Shown here: positions 3,278-39,597 of the stretch, piece by piece
Position numbering within the stretch: the stretch's first letter is position 1
How the letters are laid out: every line of letters begins with the position of its first letter
Virus record (IMG/VR): IMGVR_UViG_3300028806_000002
Location: 1-39,860 of that record
DNA length: 39,860 bases
DNA from: a virus
Strand: one strand, 5' to 3'
Notes under the pieces: model-generated
Database searches by the model: none
Seen by the model: the letters and a program-made list of their open reading frames with translations, nothing else
Told to the model about the DNA's origin: nothing
Translations under genes and position numbers: made by a program

Positions 3278-3321
3278 TTAATCCCCCGCGCTCATTCTCA
3301 AGAGTGAGCGACACGGATTAA
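3278..3321 (+). repeat. Intergenic structured element, copy 2 (44 nt, different upper stem)
   Basis: Same TTAATCC/GGATTAA lower stem, but the upper stem is CGCTCA/TGAGCG. Pairing is kept while the sequence changes. Confidence 0.7.
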
Positions 3322-3346
3322 ATTAAACAACTAAGGAGATACAAAG

Positions 3347-5471: not shown

Positions 5472-5882
5472 CTAAATTATTAACTCAAAGTGTACTAAAT
5501 CATTAAATGATTGCTTGGGTAATGTTGTATGTCCTTCCCAATTTCCGCCCCAACGAATAGCGTGTGTCATTTTATTTTCCTCTTTCAAACGCGACGCCAC
5601 ACCCAAAACATAACCCGCAAACCAGTAGAATCTTTGCGTATTTTCCCAATCAATAGGATAGGGAGAAACGTCGACCGCATTTGACGGCTGAGAATTATGT
5701 TTTCCGTTTGGCCATTGTAATTTAGTGTTGCCATCTGAATAAGCATCGTTTTGAGCCTGCTCGTTTCTGAAACCTTCGATTATCGTACAGTCAAAAGTTC
5801 GCACAACTTCGTAAAATAACGTTTGCAAATCAATGTGACAAGTTGCTAGTTTGCTGAACGATTCTTGGCTGAATTTCGGCAT
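5472..5882 (-). CDS. Endolysin, peptidase M15 (VanY / L-Ala-D-Glu peptidase-like)
   Basis: Motifs GKHNSQPSNAVDVSPYP and FNDLVHFEL match the zinc-binding H..(6)..D...H signature of M15 peptidases. 136 aa with no cell-wall-binding domain. Confidence 0.8.
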   Translation of the reverse strand: MPKFSQESFSKLATCHIDLQTLFYEVVRTFDCTIIEGFRNEQAQNDAYSDGNTKLQWPNGKHNSQPSNAVDVSPYPIDWENTQRFYWFAGYVLGVASRLKEENKMTHAIRWGGNWEGHTTLPKQSFNDLVHFELII

Positions 5883-6015
5883 TTTCGACTTCCATATTGA
5901 CTAGATTTATATCAAGCGTATCACAATGGCGGTTACAAGTTATACAGCAATAATACGAGTCTGATTCAGCGCACACTAAAAAAATGTCTTTTTTGCAACA
6001 TCTGCTAACGACCAT
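5830..6015 (-). CDS. Possible small Cys-rich protein (61 aa)
   Basis: AAGGA lies 9 nt upstream of the ATG. Contains CCKKD...CAESDSYYCCITCNRHC. The 3' end overlaps the endolysin start by 53 nt. Confidence 0.4.
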   Translation of the reverse strand: MVVSRCCKKDIFLVCAESDSYYCCITCNRHCDTLDINLVNMEVENAEIQPRIVQQTSNLSH

Positions 6016-6510: not shown

Positions 6511-6607
6511 CACTACCTCCATGTAGTTTTTTCAGATATTCTAAATATTTAACTCGGTTCTTTTTGCATTTCATACGCCAACGGTAGTCCTTTTCATATT
6601 GTTCCAT
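6422..6607 (-). CDS. Possible small basic protein overlapping the VRR-NUC start
   Basis: GGAG lies 9 nt upstream of ATG 6607, but the last ~89 nt overlap the next gene in another frame. Confidence 0.3.
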   Translation of the reverse strand: MEQYEKDYRWRMKCKKNRVKYLEYLKKLHGGSDAESGKKIKHDRRYLHKRVANPSSISKLV

Positions 6608-6635
6608 TTATGTACACTCCATGTTCCACGTAGAA

Positions 6636-6848
6636 CTATTCCATGTTCAATATCCGGCTTATGTGTTCACATCTTGATCTAAATTCTTGTCTTTCAGTCT
6701 GCAAAAAGCATTCTTTCCATTCTCTGTCATCTGAGTAAATTATTATTTTATACCCATTTTCGACACTATCAAACTTCACCCACTTGATAATTTCCGTTCG
6801 CACTAAAAATTTACCTGATTCCGTGGTAACTTCTAAAAATTTCATCAA
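6636..6848 (-). CDS. Hypothetical protein
   Basis: 70-aa track ORF in the operon orientation. Confidence 0.55.
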   Translation of the reverse strand: MMKFLEVTTESGKFLVRTEIIKWVKFDSVENGYKIIIYSDDREWKECFLQTERQEFRSRCEHISRILNME

Positions 6849-7219: not shown

Positions 7220-7429
7220 TTATCTCCAAAAAAAATCGGAAACTTCATTTTCTGTAAGCTGTTTTTTATTGAACCTATTTAAAAATAGCTCATAATAAAA
7301 ACTTATTGAGTTTGATTTGTCCAATTTATGAGCTTTTTTAGCCCAATTCATAAGCAATAGTTGTGTGTGCTTAGATAACTTTTTTTCAGTCATGTAACTT
7401 GGTTTTAAAAAATTTTCTATTTTCATCAA
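7220..7429 (-). CDS. Hypothetical protein
   Basis: 69-aa track ORF with a 4-nt overlap with the upstream replication gene. Confidence 0.55.
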   Translation of the reverse strand: MMKIENFLKPSYMTEKKLSKHTQLLLMNWAKKAHKLDKSNSISFYYELFLNRFNKKQLTENEVSDFFWR

Positions 7430-8232
7430 TGATTTATCCCGTTTACGCGGTCGTAATCTGGGTTACCTGGTTCCCAGAATTTTATTGGGCACTTTTCAAG
7501 TTTTTCCTGTTTTTCAGGAGTTTTATTCATGTATGTATTGTTTTTTGGGAACTTTTCGTCCAATATCCATTTTGTTAATGCCTCCTGCCAATTAGCTTTC
7601 TTTGTTCCCCTAGCCCTTGCATCGTGAATAAACTTGCCTATCACAATGTCTGCATCAAGTTTCCTGTATTCAGCCAGTTCAACGTTTTTTTTGTTCGGCA
7701 TAAAATCATCTGGGAGAGCCGTGAGCGTGCTTTTCGCGAACTTGCTCTCTCCTTTATTTTTGTATTCTCTTTTATTTTTAAAATCTCTTTTATTACTAGT
7801 GTCGGTTTTTCCAGCTTCTGGATTATCCAGAATCTGGTTTTTCAGTATTCTGGACTTTTCACATCCAGAATACGGGTTTTCAGTAATCTGGTCTGTGGAT
7901 AACTTTTTGTTGATATTTTCTACGTCTAGACAATTCACTAATTGGGTTTCCCAATGAGTTATTTTCCCTTTTTCATCTCTGATGGATTGTATTTTTATTG
8001 CGCCAACTTCTTTCAAAATTGCTATTTTATTTTGAATATAATCTCGTCCTACTCCGAATCTTCTCTGTAGCTCAACTTGGCATATTTCCCAGTTTTCAGG
8101 TTTTGAAGATAAGTAACAGTAAATCCCCAATGCGCCAGCATCAGGTATTAAATCCATCATCTGGTTTATAATCGTGGTGAAAGAAAAACCAGTGTGTTTT
8201 AAAAAATTTGGAGTGTTTTTTATGATCGACAT
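7426..8232 (-). CDS. Putative replication initiation protein (winged-helix N-terminus, DnaT/DnaD-like C-terminus)
   Basis: The N-terminus GALGIYCYLSSKPENWEICQVELQRRFGVGRDYIQNKIAILKEVGAI is wHTH-like. The C-terminus LPDDFMPN...FIHDARARGTKKANWQEALTKWI fits the phage replication-protein motif. ATG 8232 has AAGGAA 8 nt upstream (track start 8238 is TTG). Confidence 0.5.
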   Translation of the reverse strand: MSIIKNTPNFLKHTGFSFTTIINQMMDLIPDAGALGIYCYLSSKPENWEICQVELQRRFGVGRDYIQNKIAILKEVGAIKIQSIRDEKGKITHWETQLVNCLDVENINKKLSTDQITENPYSGCEKSRILKNQILDNPEAGKTDTSNKRDFKNKREYKNKGESKFAKSTLTALPDDFMPNKKNVELAEYRKLDADIVIGKFIHDARARGTKKANWQEALTKWILDEKFPKNNTYMNKTPEKQEKLEKCPIKFWEPGNPDYDRVNGINH

Positions 8233-8257
8233 ATACAAAATTCCTTCTGTTGGGGGG

Positions 8258-8285
8258 TTGACCTATTCCGTGGGCAACGTATAAT
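8258..8285 (+). promoter_or_regulatory. Near-consensus sigma70 promoter
   Basis: TTGACC (8258-8263), 16-nt spacer, TATAAT (8280-8285). It points into the antisense of gene 8377..8553. Confidence 0.55.
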
Positions 8286-8328
8286 TGACGTTGCGTTCGC
8301 AGGGTAGGATTGCCCGAATTGTTAGAAG

Positions 8329-8352
8329 TCACCCAGCCGCCAAGCTGGGTGA
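8329..8352. other. Stable hairpin in the regulatory gap
   Basis: TCACCCAGC (6-nt loop) GCTGGGTGA, a 9-bp perfect stem with no U-tract on either strand. Confidence 0.45.
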
Positions 8353-8376
8353 TTGACCTTAAAACTATATCTTACT

Positions 8377-8553
8377 TTACTCTTTCTCAATTTCCCATTC
8401 ATGATTTTCATCCGGTACAAAAGTCATAGCGGTAGTTATTTGGCGGGGCACTTCAAATTTAGTCGTTTGCATTACTAACCAGCCACCTTTTATTTTTGCT
8501 CTCATTATTACGTGATCTTGAAAACAAAATATGTAGTCCCACTCGAATTTCAT
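8377..8553 (-). CDS. Small hypothetical protein (58 aa)
   Basis: Track ORF 8377..8592. ATG 8553 has AAGGAAAA 6 nt upstream. Translation starts MKFEWDYIFCFQDHVIMRAKIKGGWLVMQTT... Confidence 0.55.
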   Translation of the reverse strand: MKFEWDYIFCFQDHVIMRAKIKGGWLVMQTTKFEVPRQITTAMTFVPDENHEWEIEKE

Positions 8554-8563
8554 GTTGTTTTCC

Positions 8564-8592
8564 TTGAATATTAAAGTAATACAGCGTAACAT
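8564..8592 (+). promoter_or_regulatory. Candidate promoter for the RHH gene
   Basis: TTGAAT, 17-nt spacer, TAACAT, about 40 nt upstream of ATG 8633. Confidence 0.35.
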
Positions 8593-8632
8593 AATGATAT
8601 CGTATAAAACAAATAATAAAATGGAGTTAAAA

Positions 8633-8803
8633 ATGAAAGATTATATCATATACACTCTCAGGCTTGATGAGAAAATGCACGATGAAGTGAGCAATTTAGC
8701 ACATATGTTAAAGGTTCACATGGCAGATGTCATAAGAGAAGGAATAATTTTAAGATTGAATCAAGTAAAAAAACCTTTGACAAATAGTAATAGCGCGCTA
8801 TAA
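8633..8803 (+). CDS. Ribbon-helix-helix (CopG/Arc-like) regulator
   Basis: MKDYIIYTLRLDEKMHDEVSNLAHMLKVHMADVIREGIILRLNQ shows a beta-strand followed by two helices. GGAG lies 6 nt upstream of ATG 8633 (track ORF starts 8552). Confidence 0.6.
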   Translation: MKDYIIYTLRLDEKMHDEVSNLAHMLKVHMADVIREGIILRLNQVKKPLTNSNSAL

Positions 8804-8804
8804 T
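8777..8804 (+). promoter_or_regulatory. Consensus sigma70 promoter inside the 3' end of the RHH gene
   Basis: TTGACA (8777-8782), 16-nt spacer, TATAAT (8799-8804). Confidence 0.6.
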
Positions 8805-8837
8805 GATTCTGAAATGTTTAATAATAAGGATTTAAAA

Positions 8838-9044
8838 GTGAAAGAACAAAAAGAACAAAATAAAGTAACTTCTGCAATTTCTGCAAAATGCAGAACCGAG
8901 CTAGGTTTACTCTCGGAGTATATGAGTTTAACTTTGCAGGAAACGGTTAGGTATGTACTAGAAAAGAATGTTTCTGCACTTTATGTCAAAGCTGCACAAA
9001 AACATTTGAAAAGTATTGAGAGTAATACAAAAGAGGAAGAGTAA
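8838..9044 (+). CDS. Second RHH-like small regulator
   Basis: Track ORF 8814..9044. GTG 8838 has AAGGA 7 nt upstream. ATG 8814 would be almost leaderless relative to the 8799 -10 box. KVTSAISAKCRTELGLLSEYMSLTLQETVRYVLEKN is RHH-like. Confidence 0.55.
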   Translation: MKEQKEQNKVTSAISAKCRTELGLLSEYMSLTLQETVRYVLEKNVSALYVKAAQKHLKSIESNTKEEE

Positions 9045-14187: not shown

Positions 14188-14235
14188 GCATTCGGGCATT
14201 CGGGCATTCGGGCATTCGGGCATTCGTGAATGCCG
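14188..14235. repeat. 8-bp tandem repeat GCATTCGG x4.9 ending in a palindrome
   Basis: Copies at 14188, 14196, 14204, 14212 and 14220. The last merges into GGCATTCGTGAATGCC (inverted repeat). Confidence 0.9.
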
Positions 14236-14236
14236 G

Positions 14237-14269
14237 ATATCTAGGACATATCTAGGACATATAGATGAC
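14237..14269. repeat. 11-bp tandem repeat ATATCTAGGAC x2 plus a degenerate third copy
   Basis: Copies at 14237-14247 and 14248-14258, then ATATAGATGAC. Confidence 0.85.
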
Positions 14270-14304
14270 GCTTTCATGACGCTCATGATGACGCTTATGA
14301 CGCT
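14265..14304. repeat. Four copies of ATGACGCT at 9-12-bp spacing
   Basis: Copies start at 14265, 14276, 14288 and 14297. Confidence 0.85.
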
Positions 14305-14307
14305 TTT

Positions 14308-14367
14308 GAACCCACTTAAACCCACTTAAACCCAGATAAACCCAGATAAACCCAGATAAACCCAGTT
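14308..14367. repeat. 10-bp tandem repeat (A/G)AACCCA(CTT/GAT) x6, helically phased
   Basis: GAACCCACTT, AAACCCACTT, AAACCCAGAT x3, AAACCCAGTT. The phased A-tracts suggest bent DNA. Confidence 0.9.
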
Positions 14368-14423
14368 AATATACAAGTAAATATGAGATATACTTGACAT
14401 TACTAAATAACGGAATATTTACT

Positions 14424-34281: not shown

Positions 34282-36459
34282 TTATTCACGTTTTGCAACT
34301 TTTGTCTTTTCATGTGCTGCCTTATGTTGTAATTCCTTATGATGCATTTCTTTTTCATGATGCAACTGACTAGCGTGCGTGAGCATCTTAATCATGTTCT
34401 GAGAATTAGTTATTTGCATATCAACCCCCATACGCTGATTTTCAGCCGTATAACGCAATATAGTCTCTTGCAACTGAGCTGCTTCTTTCTGCTTATCAGC
34501 TTCTAACTTCGCAAATCCAAGTGACATATCTTGTTGCGTCTCAAGTGCCTTTCGTTGCAATTCTTGTTTCTTCAATTCTAATTCCTGCATCTTCATTTGA
34601 GATTCTTGTTGTGCTTGTTGTGCTTTTTGTTGCATCTCTTGTTGCTTGAGTTGTAACATCATTGCATCAGGTGAAGGTTGCGGAGGTTTAGGAGGTAATG
34701 GTTTACCAGTCTTTCCAGCTTCAATTATTTCAGGCGGAACTAAAGTTCTTAATCGATTACGTAATTCCATATTGTTATCTAGTGGAAGATTTTCAGCGTA
34801 TAGATCTGCAATCATTGGGAACACTTGACCAGCCCTATCAGCTTGCAAAACGGATTGTAGCGATAGCAGTGCTTCTTGCTTCTGTCCCTCGTAAGAAGGC
34901 CCCGCTTTAAGTCTGATATTATACTTACCCTTAGTCATATCATTTTTCATTTGCAACCCATACTCATCCATAGGTTGATTGATATTGACTGTCTGAGATT
35001 CAGATTCCGGCATATTCAATACAAGTGAGCGCTCAGTATCATAGATTTCAGGTATCCACTCGTTTATGATTTCGCCACCCGTTGCAATTGCGATATTTAT
35101 TGAATTGAATGGTGTTGCTGTATTACGTGTACCTCTATTTGTTCGAGCTTCGATTGCAGTGCCAGAAACTTCATTGCCTAACTCGCCCATTTGTGTATCA
35201 TACATACCCGTGCCGCTCTGGATATCCATTAAGGTACGTTCGTATTGTTGTACCAGGGATTGTGATAACTCGGGCGGCTTTAGTTGTTCAGGCTTAGCAC
35301 CGCTAGCCGTTTCATCGTAATATAACGCACCATTTACTACCGAAGGGTCACGCCATTGCTGCTGTGCATCAGGAGATGCTGCGCACTTACGCGGCATGAT
35401 GAATTGATCAAACCTAGATATTTTCAGCATATAAGCTGATTGTGTTGCGAGATAATTTAGATATTTCTGTGCGTCTTTGACATCTTTGAAGAACGAACGT
35501 GTGATCTGCTGACCTTGTTTAGAGAAATAACTTTTCTGGTCAACAAAAACAACGGGCAATAATGTGGCTTTAGAAGGTAAATAAGTCTCTTCAAGTACAA
35601 AATCACCCGCTATCTGGGTATGTTTTATTTTATACTTTATTGATTCACGTTTATCAACAACTGTAACAGCTTGGCCATTACTAATAATATATTTTTTACC
35701 GTCAAACTTTACTTTCTCTAACTTTTTAAATTCTTTATCATTAACAATAGAACCATCTGATAGTTTGTAAATTGTTATCTCTTCAGGTTCTTTATTGTAA
35801 TCATCGACAATTGTAATCGAATCATCATCAGCAAAGGCAATTGTGCTATCTTCGGTTATTGCAGTCGTTCCAATCTGCGATTCAATGTCACGACCCCATG
35901 TATCTCTAAATTTTCTGCGTGATATTCTCGTTTTATATCCTGAAAACATGCCATCTACTTTACAAACATGTTTTGCTGATATATCCCAGTAACAACGATT
36001 AGGGTCTTCGAACGGATAAATCTTTATTATTTGCTCAAAACTTTCATTATCTTTGTATTCAGTATCTATTCTATATGCACCAAATCCACCGCAAGTCGAA
36101 TGACTAAATGCATTTTGATATACACTCTTAGCATCTGAGTTAAAACTGATATCTTTGACAATTGCAGCACGAACTTGCGCGGTTTCTGGGGGAACATCTT
36201 CGGAAGGCATGATCTGCATATTCGGTGTATTGAATATTTGCTCACCGCAAAGATGATTATGCAGAACGCCAAGTTTATTGAATACTAATGGGATTTTGTT
36301 ATAACGTTCGAATAACTCAGATTCATTTTCTCGCCACTGGTCGCCCATGATGAAATCGAGCCACTCATAGTACATAGACCTGTTTATAGTCCAATACTTC
36401 TCCCACTTATCGACTCTATCCCTTATCTTCCGGCATAGTTCCGGATTTTTGCTTGGCAT
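34282..36459 (-). CDS. Portal protein (P22-like, 725 aa, long C-terminal coiled-coil barrel)
   Basis: The N-terminus DFIMGDQWRENESELFERYNKIPLVFNKLG fits portal motifs. The Q/K/E-rich C-terminal helix resembles the P22 gp1 barrel. Position relative to terL and scaffold also fits. Confidence 0.8.
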   Translation of the reverse strand: MPSKNPELCRKIRDRVDKWEKYWTINRSMYYEWLDFIMGDQWRENESELFERYNKIPLVFNKLGVLHNHLCGEQIFNTPNMQIMPSEDVPPETAQVRAAIVKDISFNSDAKSVYQNAFSHSTCGGFGAYRIDTEYKDNESFEQIIKIYPFEDPNRCYWDISAKHVCKVDGMFSGYKTRISRRKFRDTWGRDIESQIGTTAITEDSTIAFADDDSITIVDDYNKEPEEITIYKLSDGSIVNDKEFKKLEKVKFDGKKYIISNGQAVTVVDKRESIKYKIKHTQIAGDFVLEETYLPSKATLLPVVFVDQKSYFSKQGQQITRSFFKDVKDAQKYLNYLATQSAYMLKISRFDQFIMPRKCAASPDAQQQWRDPSVVNGALYYDETASGAKPEQLKPPELSQSLVQQYERTLMDIQSGTGMYDTQMGELGNEVSGTAIEARTNRGTRNTATPFNSINIAIATGGEIINEWIPEIYDTERSLVLNMPESESQTVNINQPMDEYGLQMKNDMTKGKYNIRLKAGPSYEGQKQEALLSLQSVLQADRAGQVFPMIADLYAENLPLDNNMELRNRLRTLVPPEIIEAGKTGKPLPPKPPQPSPDAMMLQLKQQEMQQKAQQAQQESQMKMQELELKKQELQRKALETQQDMSLGFAKLEADKQKEAAQLQETILRYTAENQRMGVDMQITNSQNMIKMLTHASQLHHEKEMHHKELQHKAAHEKTKVAKRE

Positions 36460-36486: not shown

Positions 36487-36516
36487 ATTATAGCATTTTG
36501 GTGTATTTTACACCAA
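36487..36516 (-). promoter_or_regulatory. Extended -10 promoter upstream of the portal gene
   Basis: On the minus strand: TTGGTG, 18-nt spacer, (TGC)TATAAT. The -10 box lies ~28 nt upstream of portal ATG 36459. Confidence 0.5.
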
Positions 36517-37021
36517 TATCATCCTTGCCTTAGTAAACAAAACAGTACAACACAATACAACACAATACACTATTAAAAACCCTTACCTTACATTTCAGCA
36601 CAAAACAATACACCACACCACAACACATGACAGGAAAAAATTAAAACCCTTACATTTCCTTACAACGCATAACATCACAATGCATTACATATCGGCACAA
36701 TACATCACAATATTAAAAACCCGTACATTTCCTTACAATGCATTACATCACACAACAATACGCCACAACACAAAACAAAACATCACATGACACTATTAAA
36801 AACCCGCACATTTCCTTACAACGCATAACATCACAATGCATTACATATCGGCACAATACATCACAAAATAAAAATCCTTACCTTACAAGACATTACCCCA
36901 CAACACAGCACGCTACAACACATTACAAAATTAAAACCCTTACCTTGCCTTACGCCACAGGACAGCACATCACATAACAGAACCTGACATGACAATATTA
37001 AAAACCCTTACCTCGCCTTAC
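36515..37021. repeat. Repeat array A: 8 copies of a 62-83-bp unit
   Basis: Plus-strand core is ATTAAAAACCC(K)TAC(A/C)TT(TC)CCTTACAA. Copies start at 36515 (degenerate), 36572, 36640, 36712, 36795, 36867, 36930 and 36997. Inter-core segments are A/C-rich and related to each other. Confidence 0.9.
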
Positions 37022-37072
37022 GAAACAGCACGCTACAGCACGCTACAGCACATCACACCACATTACACAATA

Positions 37073-37104
37073 GTTTCAATCCACGCGCTCGTGAAGAGCG
37101 CGAC
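37073..37104 (-). CRISPR. Solitary type I-C-like CRISPR repeat (single copy, no array)
   Basis: The minus strand reads GTCGCGCTCTTCACGAGCGCGTGGATTGAAAC. This shows the I-C hallmarks: GTCGCGC 5' end, 7-bp stem CGCGCTC/GAGCGCG with a 5-nt loop, and an 11-nt TGGATTGAAAC tail. It is a GC-rich island in an AT/AC-rich spacer. Confidence 0.8.
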
Positions 37105-37137
37105 TACAAAACAGCACAACACAACACACAACATCAA

Positions 37138-37166
37138 AGTATAATTATTAGTTACTCTCACGCCAA
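37138..37166 (-). promoter_or_regulatory. Candidate promoter reading into the solitary repeat
   Basis: On the minus strand: TTGGCG, 17-nt spacer, TATACT. It overlaps the 3' end of ORF 37148..37693, with the -10 box ending 33 nt upstream of the repeat. Confidence 0.35.
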
Positions 37167-37693
37167 TTCGTCACAACAAATCGTCCATATATACCTTTTC
37201 TAGCTGGCCTAAAATCACCTAACCCTATTTTGGTTCCAGCATCGTCAATCAAAGTACGGATGAATTTTGGGCTAAACATCTTTAAATCCAACGTCAAAGT
37301 AAAATCTATGCACCAATTATCTAGCCTAGGTCTATGACAAACGATTCGACCACCAGTTGACGGAACAACGACAGCCCTGCTATCAACTTCCCACGTTTCA
37401 GGCGATTTAAAATACACGATTTCGCCTAAAATCATCACACCAGCAGGAACTAAAGAACTTCTAGCAGTCGTTACTTTTACCTTACCATCTTTATGAAATT
37501 TACCTGCTTCAACCAAGCAAGCAAAAATATTCACAGTAGGATAATATAATTTTTCATCCTCATCGACATAGCAAACACGTCTAGCAGCTTCGCGAGGTAA
37601 TATATCTTTATCTTTTTTTACTTTCTGCTCATCAATATTAAAACGATTCATCAGAAGCGGTGTTATCCCTGTTATTTCTATATCAATATTCAT
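37148..37693 (-). CDS. Hypothetical 181-aa protein with RAMP-like motifs
   Basis: Track ORF. Its SD is the double AAGG of array copy B1 (TAAGGTAAGGATATTAAATG). Motifs in RAMP order: IEITGITPLLMNRF, LYYPTVNIFACLVEAGK, GLGDFRPARKGIYGRFVV (Gly-rich loop-like). Confidence 0.7.
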   Translation of the reverse strand: MNIDIEITGITPLLMNRFNIDEQKVKKDKDILPREAARRVCYVDEDEKLYYPTVNIFACLVEAGKFHKDGKVKVTTARSSLVPAGVMILGEIVYFKSPETWEVDSRAVVVPSTGGRIVCHRPRLDNWCIDFTLTLDLKMFSPKFIRTLIDDAGTKIGLGDFRPARKGIYGRFVVTNWRESN

Positions 37694-37695
37694 TT

Positions 37696-37986
37696 AATAT
37701 CCTTACCTTAGATTACAGCGCAATACAAAACAGCACGTCACAATACAACACATTATTAAAAACCCGTACATTTCCTTACAACACAAAACACTACATTACA
37801 TAACGCCACAATACATCACATCACAGAAAATTATTAAAAACCCTTACATTGGATTGCATTAGAGCACAAGACAAGACACTACAACACAAGACAGCACAAT
37901 TAAAAACCCTTACATTTCCTTACAACACAAAACATTACATAACGCCACAATACATCACGTTTAAAAACCCGTACATTTCCTTACAA
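37696..37986. repeat. Repeat array B: 5 copies of the same unit
   Basis: Cores at 37696 (degenerate, doubles as the RBS), 37755, 37833, 37899 and 37960. Spacers are homologous to one another (ACACAAAACAYTACATAACGCCACAATACATCAC). Confidence 0.9.
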
Positions 37987-38076
37987 CACAAGACAGTACA
38001 ATACAGTACAATACAAAACATCACGTTTAATGAAACAAAAAAATATACATAGATAATTGATACTTGTAAACATTTA

Positions 38077-39597
38077 CTATCGAAACATCCCTCTTTCGTG
38101 TGGCATTAACTTGGGTACTTCAATTGCTGTCTGTACGCCGTGAAACCCTCCAGCAAACGTTAAACACAACGCATCAGCACCATCAGGGCTTGGCAATCCT
38201 CTTGCCCGTAAATCATCCTTCGATTCAATCTGTACCTGCCCATTTGAGTTTTCTTTGAAGCCTAATGAACACAATTCGCCGTGCAATGTGTCCTCGTCCG
38301 GTATCTGCACTGGCATATCTTGATATAGCCAATCTCGCATATCACCCCACAATTCCGCACGCTGATTCTTGTAACGTTCCTTGTCATTAGCACTACGAGC
38401 AACATTTACACCTTCAACACAGTCATAACCCATTTCATTTAATCTGTCCACAACGCCTGCACCGATTCCAATGCAATCAATATATACTTTGTCGGGTTTT
38501 TCCTCGGTTATAATGCGCTTAACACGGCCTGCAATTTCCATCGTATTGAGATGCGAGACACGTTCTAAGTTATAAGCACATCTTCCCTTACGGCGAATAA
38601 TAGCAGTCCGATCTCTATCTGATATCGCAACATCCACCCCAATAATAAGCTTGCTACCCATATCAACTTTTGCAGCACGCGCAAATTCAACGTACTTAGA
38701 ATTGATAAACACGTTGTGAATAGGGTTTTTAAATGCTTCAATTGAATTAAAAGGGTACTCAACATTAAATCGTTCTCTTCCTGCATCAAAATCCTTTGAA
38801 AACTCGTTAATTTTTAACCTACGCCAAGATAAATTATCATTAGTTAACCCATTTTTTCCATACTGAGACACTAAATACTCTTCTTCATCCGATAAATGCA
38901 TATTTTCGGAGTTATGCGAGTACTCATCATTCCAATACCATGGCAAAAATATACTTTGATACTCACTATCAGGCGACATACCTGATAACCAGCGCTCATG
39001 GAAGTAATTTCCGATACCATTTGCCGTAGATTCTAGGATAATTTCCGTACCTGGTTCATTTGAGATTGCCTGCAAGATACCTTTGCTATGATCTTCAGCA
39101 AATGCCCAAAATGCGACTTCTGAACCGTGGAAAAGCTGCACGGTTTGCGACCGACCGACTGCTTTATTGCCTGCAGTACCAATCGCGTAGCCTGAATCTA
39201 ATTGCTTAAAGTTTAATTCCTTTGCATTATCCGTATTCGGCTTAGGGCATAATCCTGGTTCCAAGTTTTCATTAAACCGTTTGGCCATATTGAACAGATT
39301 ATTAGTTGCTTCTTTATCGTGCGTGAGAATAAATGCTTTTTTACCGCGCGAAGTGATGATCTGATGGAAGAACCTAGCCTGTATATATGTTGAACAACCT
39401 TGTTGTCGTCCCTTTAAAATGCAGGCACGCACACGTCCCGTCGATTCCTTTTGACGAGCAAGACGTTCATGTAAGTAGGACTGTGCGCGATTAAACGTGA
39501 AATACTTTTTAACACCGGCCTTGTCTTTAACAATCAGAAATCGCTCGGCAAATTTCTGAAAATCCCTAATTGAATCTAATTTAGCTTGACTTATCAA
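38077..39597 (-). CDS. terL: Terminase large subunit
   Basis: 506 aa. Deviant Walker A in ACILKGRQQGCSTY, FILTHDKEA, and a C-terminal nuclease-like IGVDVA...YIDCIGIGAGV...DGADAL. The only in-frame start is TTG 39597. Confidence 0.85.
   Translation of the reverse strand: MISQAKLDSIRDFQKFAERFLIVKDKAGVKKYFTFNRAQSYLHERLARQKESTGRVRACILKGRQQGCSTYIQARFFHQIITSRGKKAFILTHDKEATNNLFNMAKRFNENLEPGLCPKPNTDNAKELNFKQLDSGYAIGTAGNKAVGRSQTVQLFHGSEVAFWAFAEDHSKGILQAISNEPGTEIILESTANGIGNYFHERWLSGMSPDSEYQSIFLPWYWNDEYSHNSENMHLSDEEEYLVSQYGKNGLTNDNLSWRRLKINEFSKDFDAGRERFNVEYPFNSIEAFKNPIHNVFINSKYVEFARAAKVDMGSKLIIGVDVAISDRDRTAIIRRKGRCAYNLERVSHLNTMEIAGRVKRIITEEKPDKVYIDCIGIGAGVVDRLNEMGYDCVEGVNVARSANDKERYKNQRAELWGDMRDWLYQDMPVQIPDEDTLHGELCSLGFKENSNGQVQIESKDDLRARGLPSPDGADALCLTFAGGFHGVQTAIEVPKLMPHERGMFR

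Follow-up and report, generated by a model that had tools for sequence, protein, structure and literature searches.

A probable VIPR locus of variant design between terL and the portal gene of an uncultured P22-like phage

What are the ~70-bp tandem units, each carrying a doubled AAGG motif, that precede the portal gene of an uncultured P22-like phage? The stretch of DNA analysed here (the window) comprises positions 1 to 39,860 of IMG/VR record IMGVR_UViG_3300028806_000002 and is a complete, circularly permuted phage contig of ~39.86 kb (ENA ERZ27248783 k141_2659936). Its P22-like structural module lies on the minus strand, with terL at 38077-39597, an open reading frame of 181 codons (ORF181) at 37148-37693 and the portal gene at 34282-36459. 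Our answer, to which we assign a probability of about 0.88, is that the region between terL and the portal gene is a VIPR (Viral Interference Programmable Repeat) locus, composed of a vipr gene, ORF181, and about 13 guide RNAs (vrRNAs) encoded in two intergenic arrays, A and B. An earlier note on this DNA, made from the sequence alone, had recorded eight units at 36515-37021, offered tandem promoters, a sponge RNA or reiterated protein-binding sites as possible roles, and knew of no described phage element with this layout; the last statement has been overtaken by two preprints of 2026 (bioRxiv 10.64898/2026.04.26.720920 and 10.64898/2026.04.26.720927).

In these preprints, VIPR loci consist of a gene for a small phage-encoded RAMP, Vipr, flanked by intergenic vrRNAs of less than 100 nt, each made of 9-16 pentamers in which a GGY triplet alternates with a hypervariable dinucleotide (NN), followed by an invariable 3' tail. 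Each repeat is covered by one Vipr protomer, base pairing of the NN dinucleotides with double-stranded DNA leaves out every third target base, and binding silences the transcription of rival phages, satellites or prophages. Seven VIPR types are distinguished, with NNNGG, YNNNG and NNNNG as alternative consensuses (bioRxiv 10.64898/2026.04.26.720920, 10.64898/2026.04.26.720927).

A Cas7-like gene between two arrays of phased pentamers

The product of ORF181 (37148-37693, minus strand) is predicted by profile, pairwise and structural comparison to be a Vipr protein, that is, a minimal Cas7-like RAMP. A profile built from 35 members of its family matches a single PDB entry, 36pp "SUSP1 Vipr protein" (E=1.2e-12), and BLASTP aligns ORF181 with the Vipr protein of the SUSP1-like Shigella phage Z31 (24% identity, E=2e-13). 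The AlphaFold2 model (pLDDT 89.7, pTM 0.84) retrieves Cas7, Csm3, Cas7-11 and type VII Cas7 structures in all of the top 50 Foldseek matches to the PDB (E ~2e-6, probability 1.0). A G-loop (GLGDFRP...GRF) and a thumb (HRPR) are invariant or nearly so in the 35 family members, and the SUSP1 residues R138, D177, W178 and R179, which hold G2 and Y3 of the repeat (bioRxiv 10.64898/2026.04.26.720920, 10.64898/2026.04.26.720927), align with the conserved R121, D160, F161 and R162. ORF181 thereby has the small stand-alone RAMP design, with RRM core, glycine-rich loop and thumb, by which Vipr proteins are recognized. The family corresponds to PHROG 4652, which carries no assigned function, and PADLOC returned no hit for ORF181. 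The residue aligned with H17 of SUSP1, N or H in this family, was also compared with the occurrence of UGU versus GGY arrays, and no pattern of co-variation emerged.

The intergenic regions on both sides of this gene are repetitive in a way that the ~70-bp spacing captures in part. The core sequence GTAAGGGTTTTTAAT of the minus strand has 16 matches in the window at up to three mismatches, against a chance expectation of 3.45 +/- 1.65; 12 of the 16 lie inside arrays A and B on the minus strand, and the remaining four are three-mismatch matches elsewhere, one of them on the plus strand. Tandem Repeats Finder (TRF) reports periods of 62-83 and 155 bp. The earlier description of these repeats was accurate as far as it went, with eight cores in 36515-37021 and roughly 22 AAGG motifs (our count is 22, with 15 in array A and 7 in array B), but it missed the 5-nt regularity between the cores. 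On the minus strand, YGT-NN phasing runs through the entire intervals 36503-37165 and 37691-38052 and occurs nowhere else in the window, with up to 10 of 12 positions per 60 nt occupied by an in-phase TGT in the arrays, compared with at most five in 20 shuffles. In the logo of 115 pentamers, the triplet is strongly conserved (T 89%, G 98%, T 90%) and positions 4 and 5 are near-random (0.20 and 0.14 bits). Strict tracts of at least seven pentamers number 11 in the window, all of them in the arrays and on the minus strand, and zero in 1.08 Mb of unrelated viral loci. The pentamer arrays are thus confined to the two intergenic regions that flank ORF181, on the same strand as the gene, and display the tandem pentamers with a conserved G-containing triplet and hypervariable NN that mark VIPR loci.

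Pentamers and cores are in register. Each unit comprises 7-11 (T/C)GT-NN pentamers, followed by TGTAA GGAAA TGTA(A/C) GGG TTTTT AAT or by one of the variants CGTAA GGCGA GGTAA GGG and TGTAA GGTAA GGA. Because the NN of the terminal pentamers is fixed as AA (xGUAA/GGxAA/xGUAA/GGG), the doubled AAGG is a by-product of the pentamer register. At the loci inspected, the first tract opens directly behind the preceding stop codon and lacks a core in front of it, a core follows each tract and the last core serves as the ribosome-binding site of the next gene, which identifies the core as the 3' element of the unit. Each ~70-bp unit is therefore best read as one putative vrRNA with 7-11 variable and ~3 fixed pentamers, 10-14 in total, ending in a constant tail, UGUAA-GGAAA-UGUAA-GGG-U5-AAU. 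Folding of the units compared with shuffles gave z = +1.1 to +2.0 in four of six units, with one unit of array B (B2) significantly more structured (z = -2.6), and neither a stable fold nor a pseudoknot was predicted in the tail. The low structure of the units is broadly consistent with protein-coated guides.

Array A (36518-37067, minus strand) holds eight predicted vrRNAs with tracts of 7-11 variable pentamers as delimited by register analysis: A1 at 37067-36995, A2 at 36994-36928, A3 at 36927-36866, A4 at 36865-36793, A5 at 36792-36710, A6 at 36709-36633, A7 at 36632-36570 and A8 at 36569-36518. Their tails, to which the eight cores of the earlier note correspond, follow the pattern (T/C)GTAAGG(A/C/T)..GTAAGG(G/A)TTTT(T)AAT. 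The repeats of 36515-37021 are real, but the array continues past the end given to it in the earlier note, to ~37133, where a truncated tract of 5.8 UGU-NN pentamers (A0, 37105-37133, minus strand) begins 14 nt beyond the vipr stop codon and is cut short by a CRISPR repeat discussed below. The duplication recorded there is also real and is exact over 59 bp (36652-36710 = 36808-36866); guides A4 and A6 are identical. Array B (37694-38025, minus strand), upstream of vipr, holds five predicted vrRNAs defined by register and by tract and tail boundaries, namely B1 at 38025-37960, B2 at 37959-37899, B3 at 37898-37826, B4 at 37825-37753 and B5 at 37752-37694. Their tracts of 7-10 YGU-NN pentamers are each followed by TGTAAGGAAATGTA(A/C)GGGTTTTTAA(T/A), and B5 ends in a tail (TAAGGTAAGGA) that is also the vipr Shine-Dalgarno sequence.

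Two promoter-like sites lie near the ends of the arrays. The best-scoring site of a sigma-70 scan (10/12, a consensus match only), TTTACA-17-TATATT at 38042-38070 on the minus strand, lies just past the terL stop codon and upstream of B1, and it is possible that a precursor spanning array B and vipr starts there. At 36487-36514 on the minus strand, right before the portal gene, a hairpin read from the sequence (GGTGTA-AAA-TACACC) is followed by an extended -10 element (TGcTATAAT); this arrangement is conserved in a close relative (L009) and is probably the portal operon's own, separate promoter, marking the 3' limit of array A. No Rfam family reached its gathering score anywhere in the window, blastn of the region against 50,697 phage records gave no match and no close isolated phage was found, portal identities being 27% at most.

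Taken together with the characterized SUSP1 system, this anatomy suggests how the locus would operate. Arrays B (five vrRNAs) and A (eight plus the truncated one) would be transcribed together with vipr, one Vipr protomer would bind each pentamer and sequester its conserved trinucleotide, and the exposed NN dinucleotides would pair with double-stranded DNA, skipping every third target base, so that the resulting filament would block transcription of a competing phage, satellite or prophage. From the preprints we infer that the RNAs would be expressed and processed, that the UGU variant would follow the same one-base skip rule and that the guides would have biological targets. Because the B5 tail is the Shine-Dalgarno sequence of vipr, one may also speculate that Vipr feeds back on its own translation. 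Of the roles listed in the earlier note, reiterated protein-binding sites came closest: repeated sites there would indeed be, but on RNA and for the adjacent Vipr, with the pentamer rather than the core as the unit.

Relatives of the locus and competing explanations

A search with ORF181 recovered nine IMG/VR loci at 70-94% identity and many metagenome contigs; 1005 homologues had E<=1e-5. Of these relatives, 12 further distinct ones were inspected, with identities of 70-94% and in one case 54%, and period-5 arrays adjoin the gene in all of them. At every locus inspected, arrays of this kind flank the gene on either side and lie on its strand. The arrays persist beside vipr even where portal identity drops to 22-28%, and the conservation of ORF181 (70-85%) against that of the adjoining portal (22-52%) indicates that gene and arrays move together as a cassette. 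The guides turn over between close relatives. Between the window and L009, which share ~94% identical Vipr, TerL and portal proteins, the arrays differ in size (5+8 versus 3+4 units) and none of the guides shares more than three NN in register. Tail architecture also varies inside one Vipr clade, since in L140 (GCA_040384245.1 JAWVHA010002679.1; Vipr 73% identical) tracts of 12-22 UGU-NN pentamers at 5747-5985 and 6549-6738 come without AAGG/U-run cores. A more distant contig, L144 (GCA_016276955.3 JAEHJW030014545.1), phage-like and of 57% GC, encodes a 54%-identical Vipr beside GGC/GGT-NN pentamers (5885-5989 and 6585-6629) and links the UGU clade to the published GGY consensus. As a control, the tract definition used for the window recovered the arrays of phage Z31, with one tract upstream of the vipr-vap pair and four downstream, each of 11-16 GGY-NN pentamers followed by GGGTAGTT... 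and preceded, just upstream, by a AGGGTTTTTAAG element similar to the core of the window. In IMG/VR, the core 15-mer gave more than 120 matches, mostly by chance; two loci had arrays, one of which (L125) is the L009 contig.

A separate observation concerns IMGVR_UViG_3300037852_000197 (L075), where short UGU/AGU-NN tracts with GTAAGGTAAGGATTTTTA are fused to the ATG of three genes at 7330-8850 on the minus strand, with no vipr in the 13 kb examined. Such tracts may represent vrRNA-like leaders without a vipr of their own (orphans) or else vrRNAs that act in trans.

Among the alternatives, the one that survives best, and which we still consider very unlikely, holds that every unit is a sigma-70 promoter (TTGTAA-N17-TAATAT) that fires into the portal operon, the units together forming a tandem stack; in a weaker form, each core would hold the promoter of the next vrRNA. 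Some cores do read TTGTAA-17-TAATAT, one of them (37781-37752) passes the sigma-70 scan, and the AGGGTTTTTAAG element before each Z31 tract makes a shared start or processing signal possible. Yet that core is the single one of 12 to pass, and promoter-like sites in the region are fewer than in its shuffles (12 versus 19.4); the promoter stack of the earlier note is not supported. The last base of the -10 element (-7) is T in 5 of 11 cores, and across relatives it is AAGG-N-AAGG and the U-run that are conserved. In a promoter these bases would belong to the spacer, and the "-35" is variable. Moreover, the core is present at no other gene of the genome, the arrays of L140 have none and no core precedes the tract with which each array opens.

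The sponge reading fares worse and is highly improbable in our estimate. According to this proposal, the ~22 Shine-Dalgarno-like AAGG motifs of the transcribed strand would form a decoy RNA titrating CsrA/RsmA or 30S subunits; TAAGG can indeed pair with the 3' end of 16S rRNA, the last array B tail serves as the vipr ribosome-binding site and the same core bears the ATG of the three L075 genes. The GGA required by such regulators is, however, not conserved (AAGGA, AAGGT and AAGGG all occur) and not presented in hairpin loops, outside which the motifs lie, in units that are no more structured than shuffles. The proposal also leaves the 5-nt phasing, the hypervariable NN and the strict linkage to a RAMP gene unexplained, and L140, from the same Vipr clade, has no AAGG cores at all.

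That the units are degenerate duplicated 5' leaders or translation-initiation cassettes, akin to start-associated sequences or shuffling cassettes of other phages, or a functionless pentanucleotide microsatellite, would fit the differing copy numbers of close relatives, the recent exact duplication and the likeness of the cores to a ribosome-binding site plus spacer, but it is just as improbable, given a G that is 98% conserved in a phase held over ~1 kb with near-random NN, a design still seen in a genome of 57% GC whose protein is 54% identical, and a specific association with a RAMP that has a solved vrRNA-binding protein as its homologue. Several further ideas were dropped once the Vipr match appeared, namely decoy ribosome-binding sites, C-poor Rho-proof leaders, a TRAP-like ring-protein site, pseudo-ToxI antitoxin repeats, Chi-like or packaging sites and shuffling cassettes.

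Departures from characterized VIPR systems and the search for targets

A number of results weigh against assignment of the locus to VIPR. Sequence identity to the solved Vipr is 24%. The conserved triplet is UGU instead of the canonical GGY: the window consensus, YNNUG, falls within the YNNNG alternative of the preprint methods, and strict GGY is absent from the window and present in L144. Since H17 and D177 are the residues with which the SUSP1 protein reads the first G, recognition of UGU would have to differ in detail. The tail is short and has no predicted pseudoknot or stable fold, in contrast to the SUSP1 clade. There is also no vap accessory gene, with no homologue of Z31 vap1 in the window and vipr bounded directly by the arrays, terL and the portal gene; a conserved 79-amino-acid gene considered as a vap candidate proved to be a phage backbone gene that is not homologous across clades. 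VIPR loci are described as "typically" two-gene, so that vap is not strictly required (bioRxiv 10.64898/2026.04.26.720920, 10.64898/2026.04.26.720927). Finally, the published basis for VIPR is a pair of preprints, both from one laboratory.

The guides themselves add to these reservations, as no natural target was found for them in local loci, IMG/VR or metagenomes. Neither self-targets nor matches in ~1.3 Mb of local loci rose above those of shuffled guides under any of four skip rules; the absence of self-targets speaks for the assignment, as VIPR systems of the preprint likewise lack them, and targets are called there at >=80% NN match (bioRxiv 10.64898/2026.04.26.720920, 10.64898/2026.04.26.720927), whereas our searches of IMG/VR and metagenomes covered exact patterns. 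The exact one-skip patterns of A4/A6, A5, B4 and A1 had zero matches in IMG/VR, and that of A5 had zero in metagenomes. Guide A4/A6 had 14 metagenome matches, a count with no computed chance expectation, mostly on unrelated contigs and converging on no target. One of these contigs, L152 (JAEHJW020002477.1; GC 0.34), carries at 7416-7442 a perfect one-skip match of A4/A6 that is in frame within a primase-helicase gene, so placed that the skipped bases are wobble bases; other guides scored marginally on this contig and not in coding phase, and we regard the match as a lead only. Separately, the gapless (0-skip) NN string of A4/A6 matches 17 of 18 bases at L094 7938-7955 and L066 2425-2442, probably by chance in AT-rich coding DNA, the two contigs being related to each other and otherwise unrelated.

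Among known systems, the closest is type II VIPR, represented by Escherichia phage SUSP1 and a Pseudomonas fulva prophage. The window and type II have in common one small RAMP gene (~20 kDa) flanked by same-strand intergenic arrays for RNAs of less than 100 nt, in which pentamers combine a conserved triplet containing G with hypervariable NN and are followed by a constant 3' tail starting with GGG; in either case the locus is phage-encoded, without self-targets and with guide turnover between close relatives. The window differs from type II in its triplet (UGU, YNNUG, versus GGY), in the number of variable repeats (7-11 versus 9-16), in a short AAGG- and U-rich tail without a predicted pseudoknot, whereas a pseudoknot is found in the SUSP1 clade, and in the number of guides (~13 versus 4). 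It further lacks vap, uses its last tail as the vipr ribosome-binding site, has a CRISPR repeat embedded in an array and places the cassette between terL and portal of a P22-like module.

Class 1 CRISPR backbones, in which Cas7 or Csm3 coats a crRNA, share the fold (Foldseek probability 1.0), the G-loop and the thumb and, by analogy, would share the assignment of one protomer to each fixed-length RNA segment and periodic base flipping. In VIPR, however, the period is 5 nt with three bases sequestered, as opposed to 6 nt with one base flipped in CRISPR, repeat-spacer arrays, cas1/cas2 and a large subunit are missing and the guide information is non-contiguous. The resemblance to CsrB/RsmZ-type sponge RNAs, which are also non-coding and rich in purine-rich A(N)GG motifs, ends with the lack of GGA-in-loop hairpins and of a conserved GGA, the motifs of the window being by-products of fixed pentamers. 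Sites of TRAP (11 G/UAG triplets with 2-3-nt spacers) likewise present, on single-stranded RNA, a triplet every 5 nt read by one protomer; the folds are nonetheless unrelated, TRAP forms a ring and Vipr a helical filament, and the spacer dinucleotides are informative in the window.

The locus is thus a new, variant example of a kind first described in the 2026 preprints, not of an unknown kind. VIPR is newly reported RNA-guided DNA recognition with a gapped dinucleotide code, from which CRISPR effector complexes have been proposed to descend. To this, the window would add an uncultured P22-like phage lineage with a large Vipr clade, which departs from characterized type II in its UGU triplet, its short unstructured tail, its unusually many guides and a cassette that moves among phages with unrelated portals. 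The tail that doubles as the vipr ribosome-binding site hints at autoregulation. For annotation, GU-rich "microsatellites" beside a PHROG-4652 gene can be labelled guide arrays.

A solitary CRISPR repeat inside array A, and other repeats of the window

The first vrRNA tract of array A is broken at 37073-37104 (minus strand) by an exact type I-C CRISPR repeat, GTCGCGCTCTTCACGAGCGCGTGGATTGAAAC, which is the one copy in the window at up to three mismatches and the first case in this analysis of a VIPR array with a CRISPR element in it. Real CRISPR arrays in metagenome-assembled genomes (MAGs) of Casimicrobiaceae, Lysobacterales, Gammaproteobacteria and Fibrobacteria are built from the identical repeat, in 41, 31, 17 and 5 exact copies spaced at a ~66-bp period; the repeat also occurs as single copies in two further MAG contigs. 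The repeat folds into the expected 7-bp GC hairpin, and a permissive Rfam scan of the arrays yielded only CRISPR-DR9, below threshold, at this position. A second, independent Logan assembly (L019) contains it as well. It was not found in any relative examined, and IMG/VR yielded no other case in which a type I-C repeat adjoins a UGU tract. A promoter-like site, TTGGCG-17-TATACT (37138-37166, minus strand; 9/12, a consensus match only), lies ~33 nt upstream. The repeat does not identify the host: unrelated lineages, at least five in number, have it in common, and of the 93 spacers taken from arrays with the identical repeat, none matched the phage.

With one mimic of a CRISPR repeat, no array and no Pfam cas domain in the genes called on a 20.5-kb part of the contig that surrounds vipr, the element has the layout of an RNA anti-CRISPR (Racr), and we propose 37073-37104 as a Racr candidate. 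RacrIC1, itself a solitary repeat unit, has been validated against type I-C (PMC10651486). The likeness to such elements is restricted to this segment, which shares with them a single phage-borne repeat identical to a type I-C-style repeat, the lack of cas genes or a second repeat and a promoter-like site upstream; it differs in lying inside a vrRNA array and not beside acr genes. That the repeat is functionally coupled to the VIPR array, as opposed to being a passenger, seems doubtful to us. If coupled, it might be co-transcribed with the vrRNAs, such that one non-coding locus would disarm host CRISPR-Cas as a Racr and silence rival phages. Alternatively, host Cas5c might cut the repeat, which would process the precursor or would supply Cascade with a chimeric decoy, the UGU-NN tract downstream of the repeat. 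A coupled repeat would make the locus a physical hybrid of CRISPR and VIPR, which bears on the proposal that CRISPR descended from VIPR.

Two other sets of repeats were noticed far from the vipr cassette. Four adjacent short tandem-repeat sets occupy 14188-14369, where the early block of the plus strand gives way to the structural block on the minus strand (GCATTCGG x5, ATATCTAGGAC x2.4, ATGACGCTY ~x4 and AACCCA(C/G)(T/A)TA x6), and resemble iterons or an origin/operator cluster. On the plus strand, a near-identical 30-nt leader (attaa(c/a)tta..aactaaggagatacaaag) stands at 2808-2837 and 3317-3346 ahead of two early genes, which suggests duplicated translation-initiation regions.

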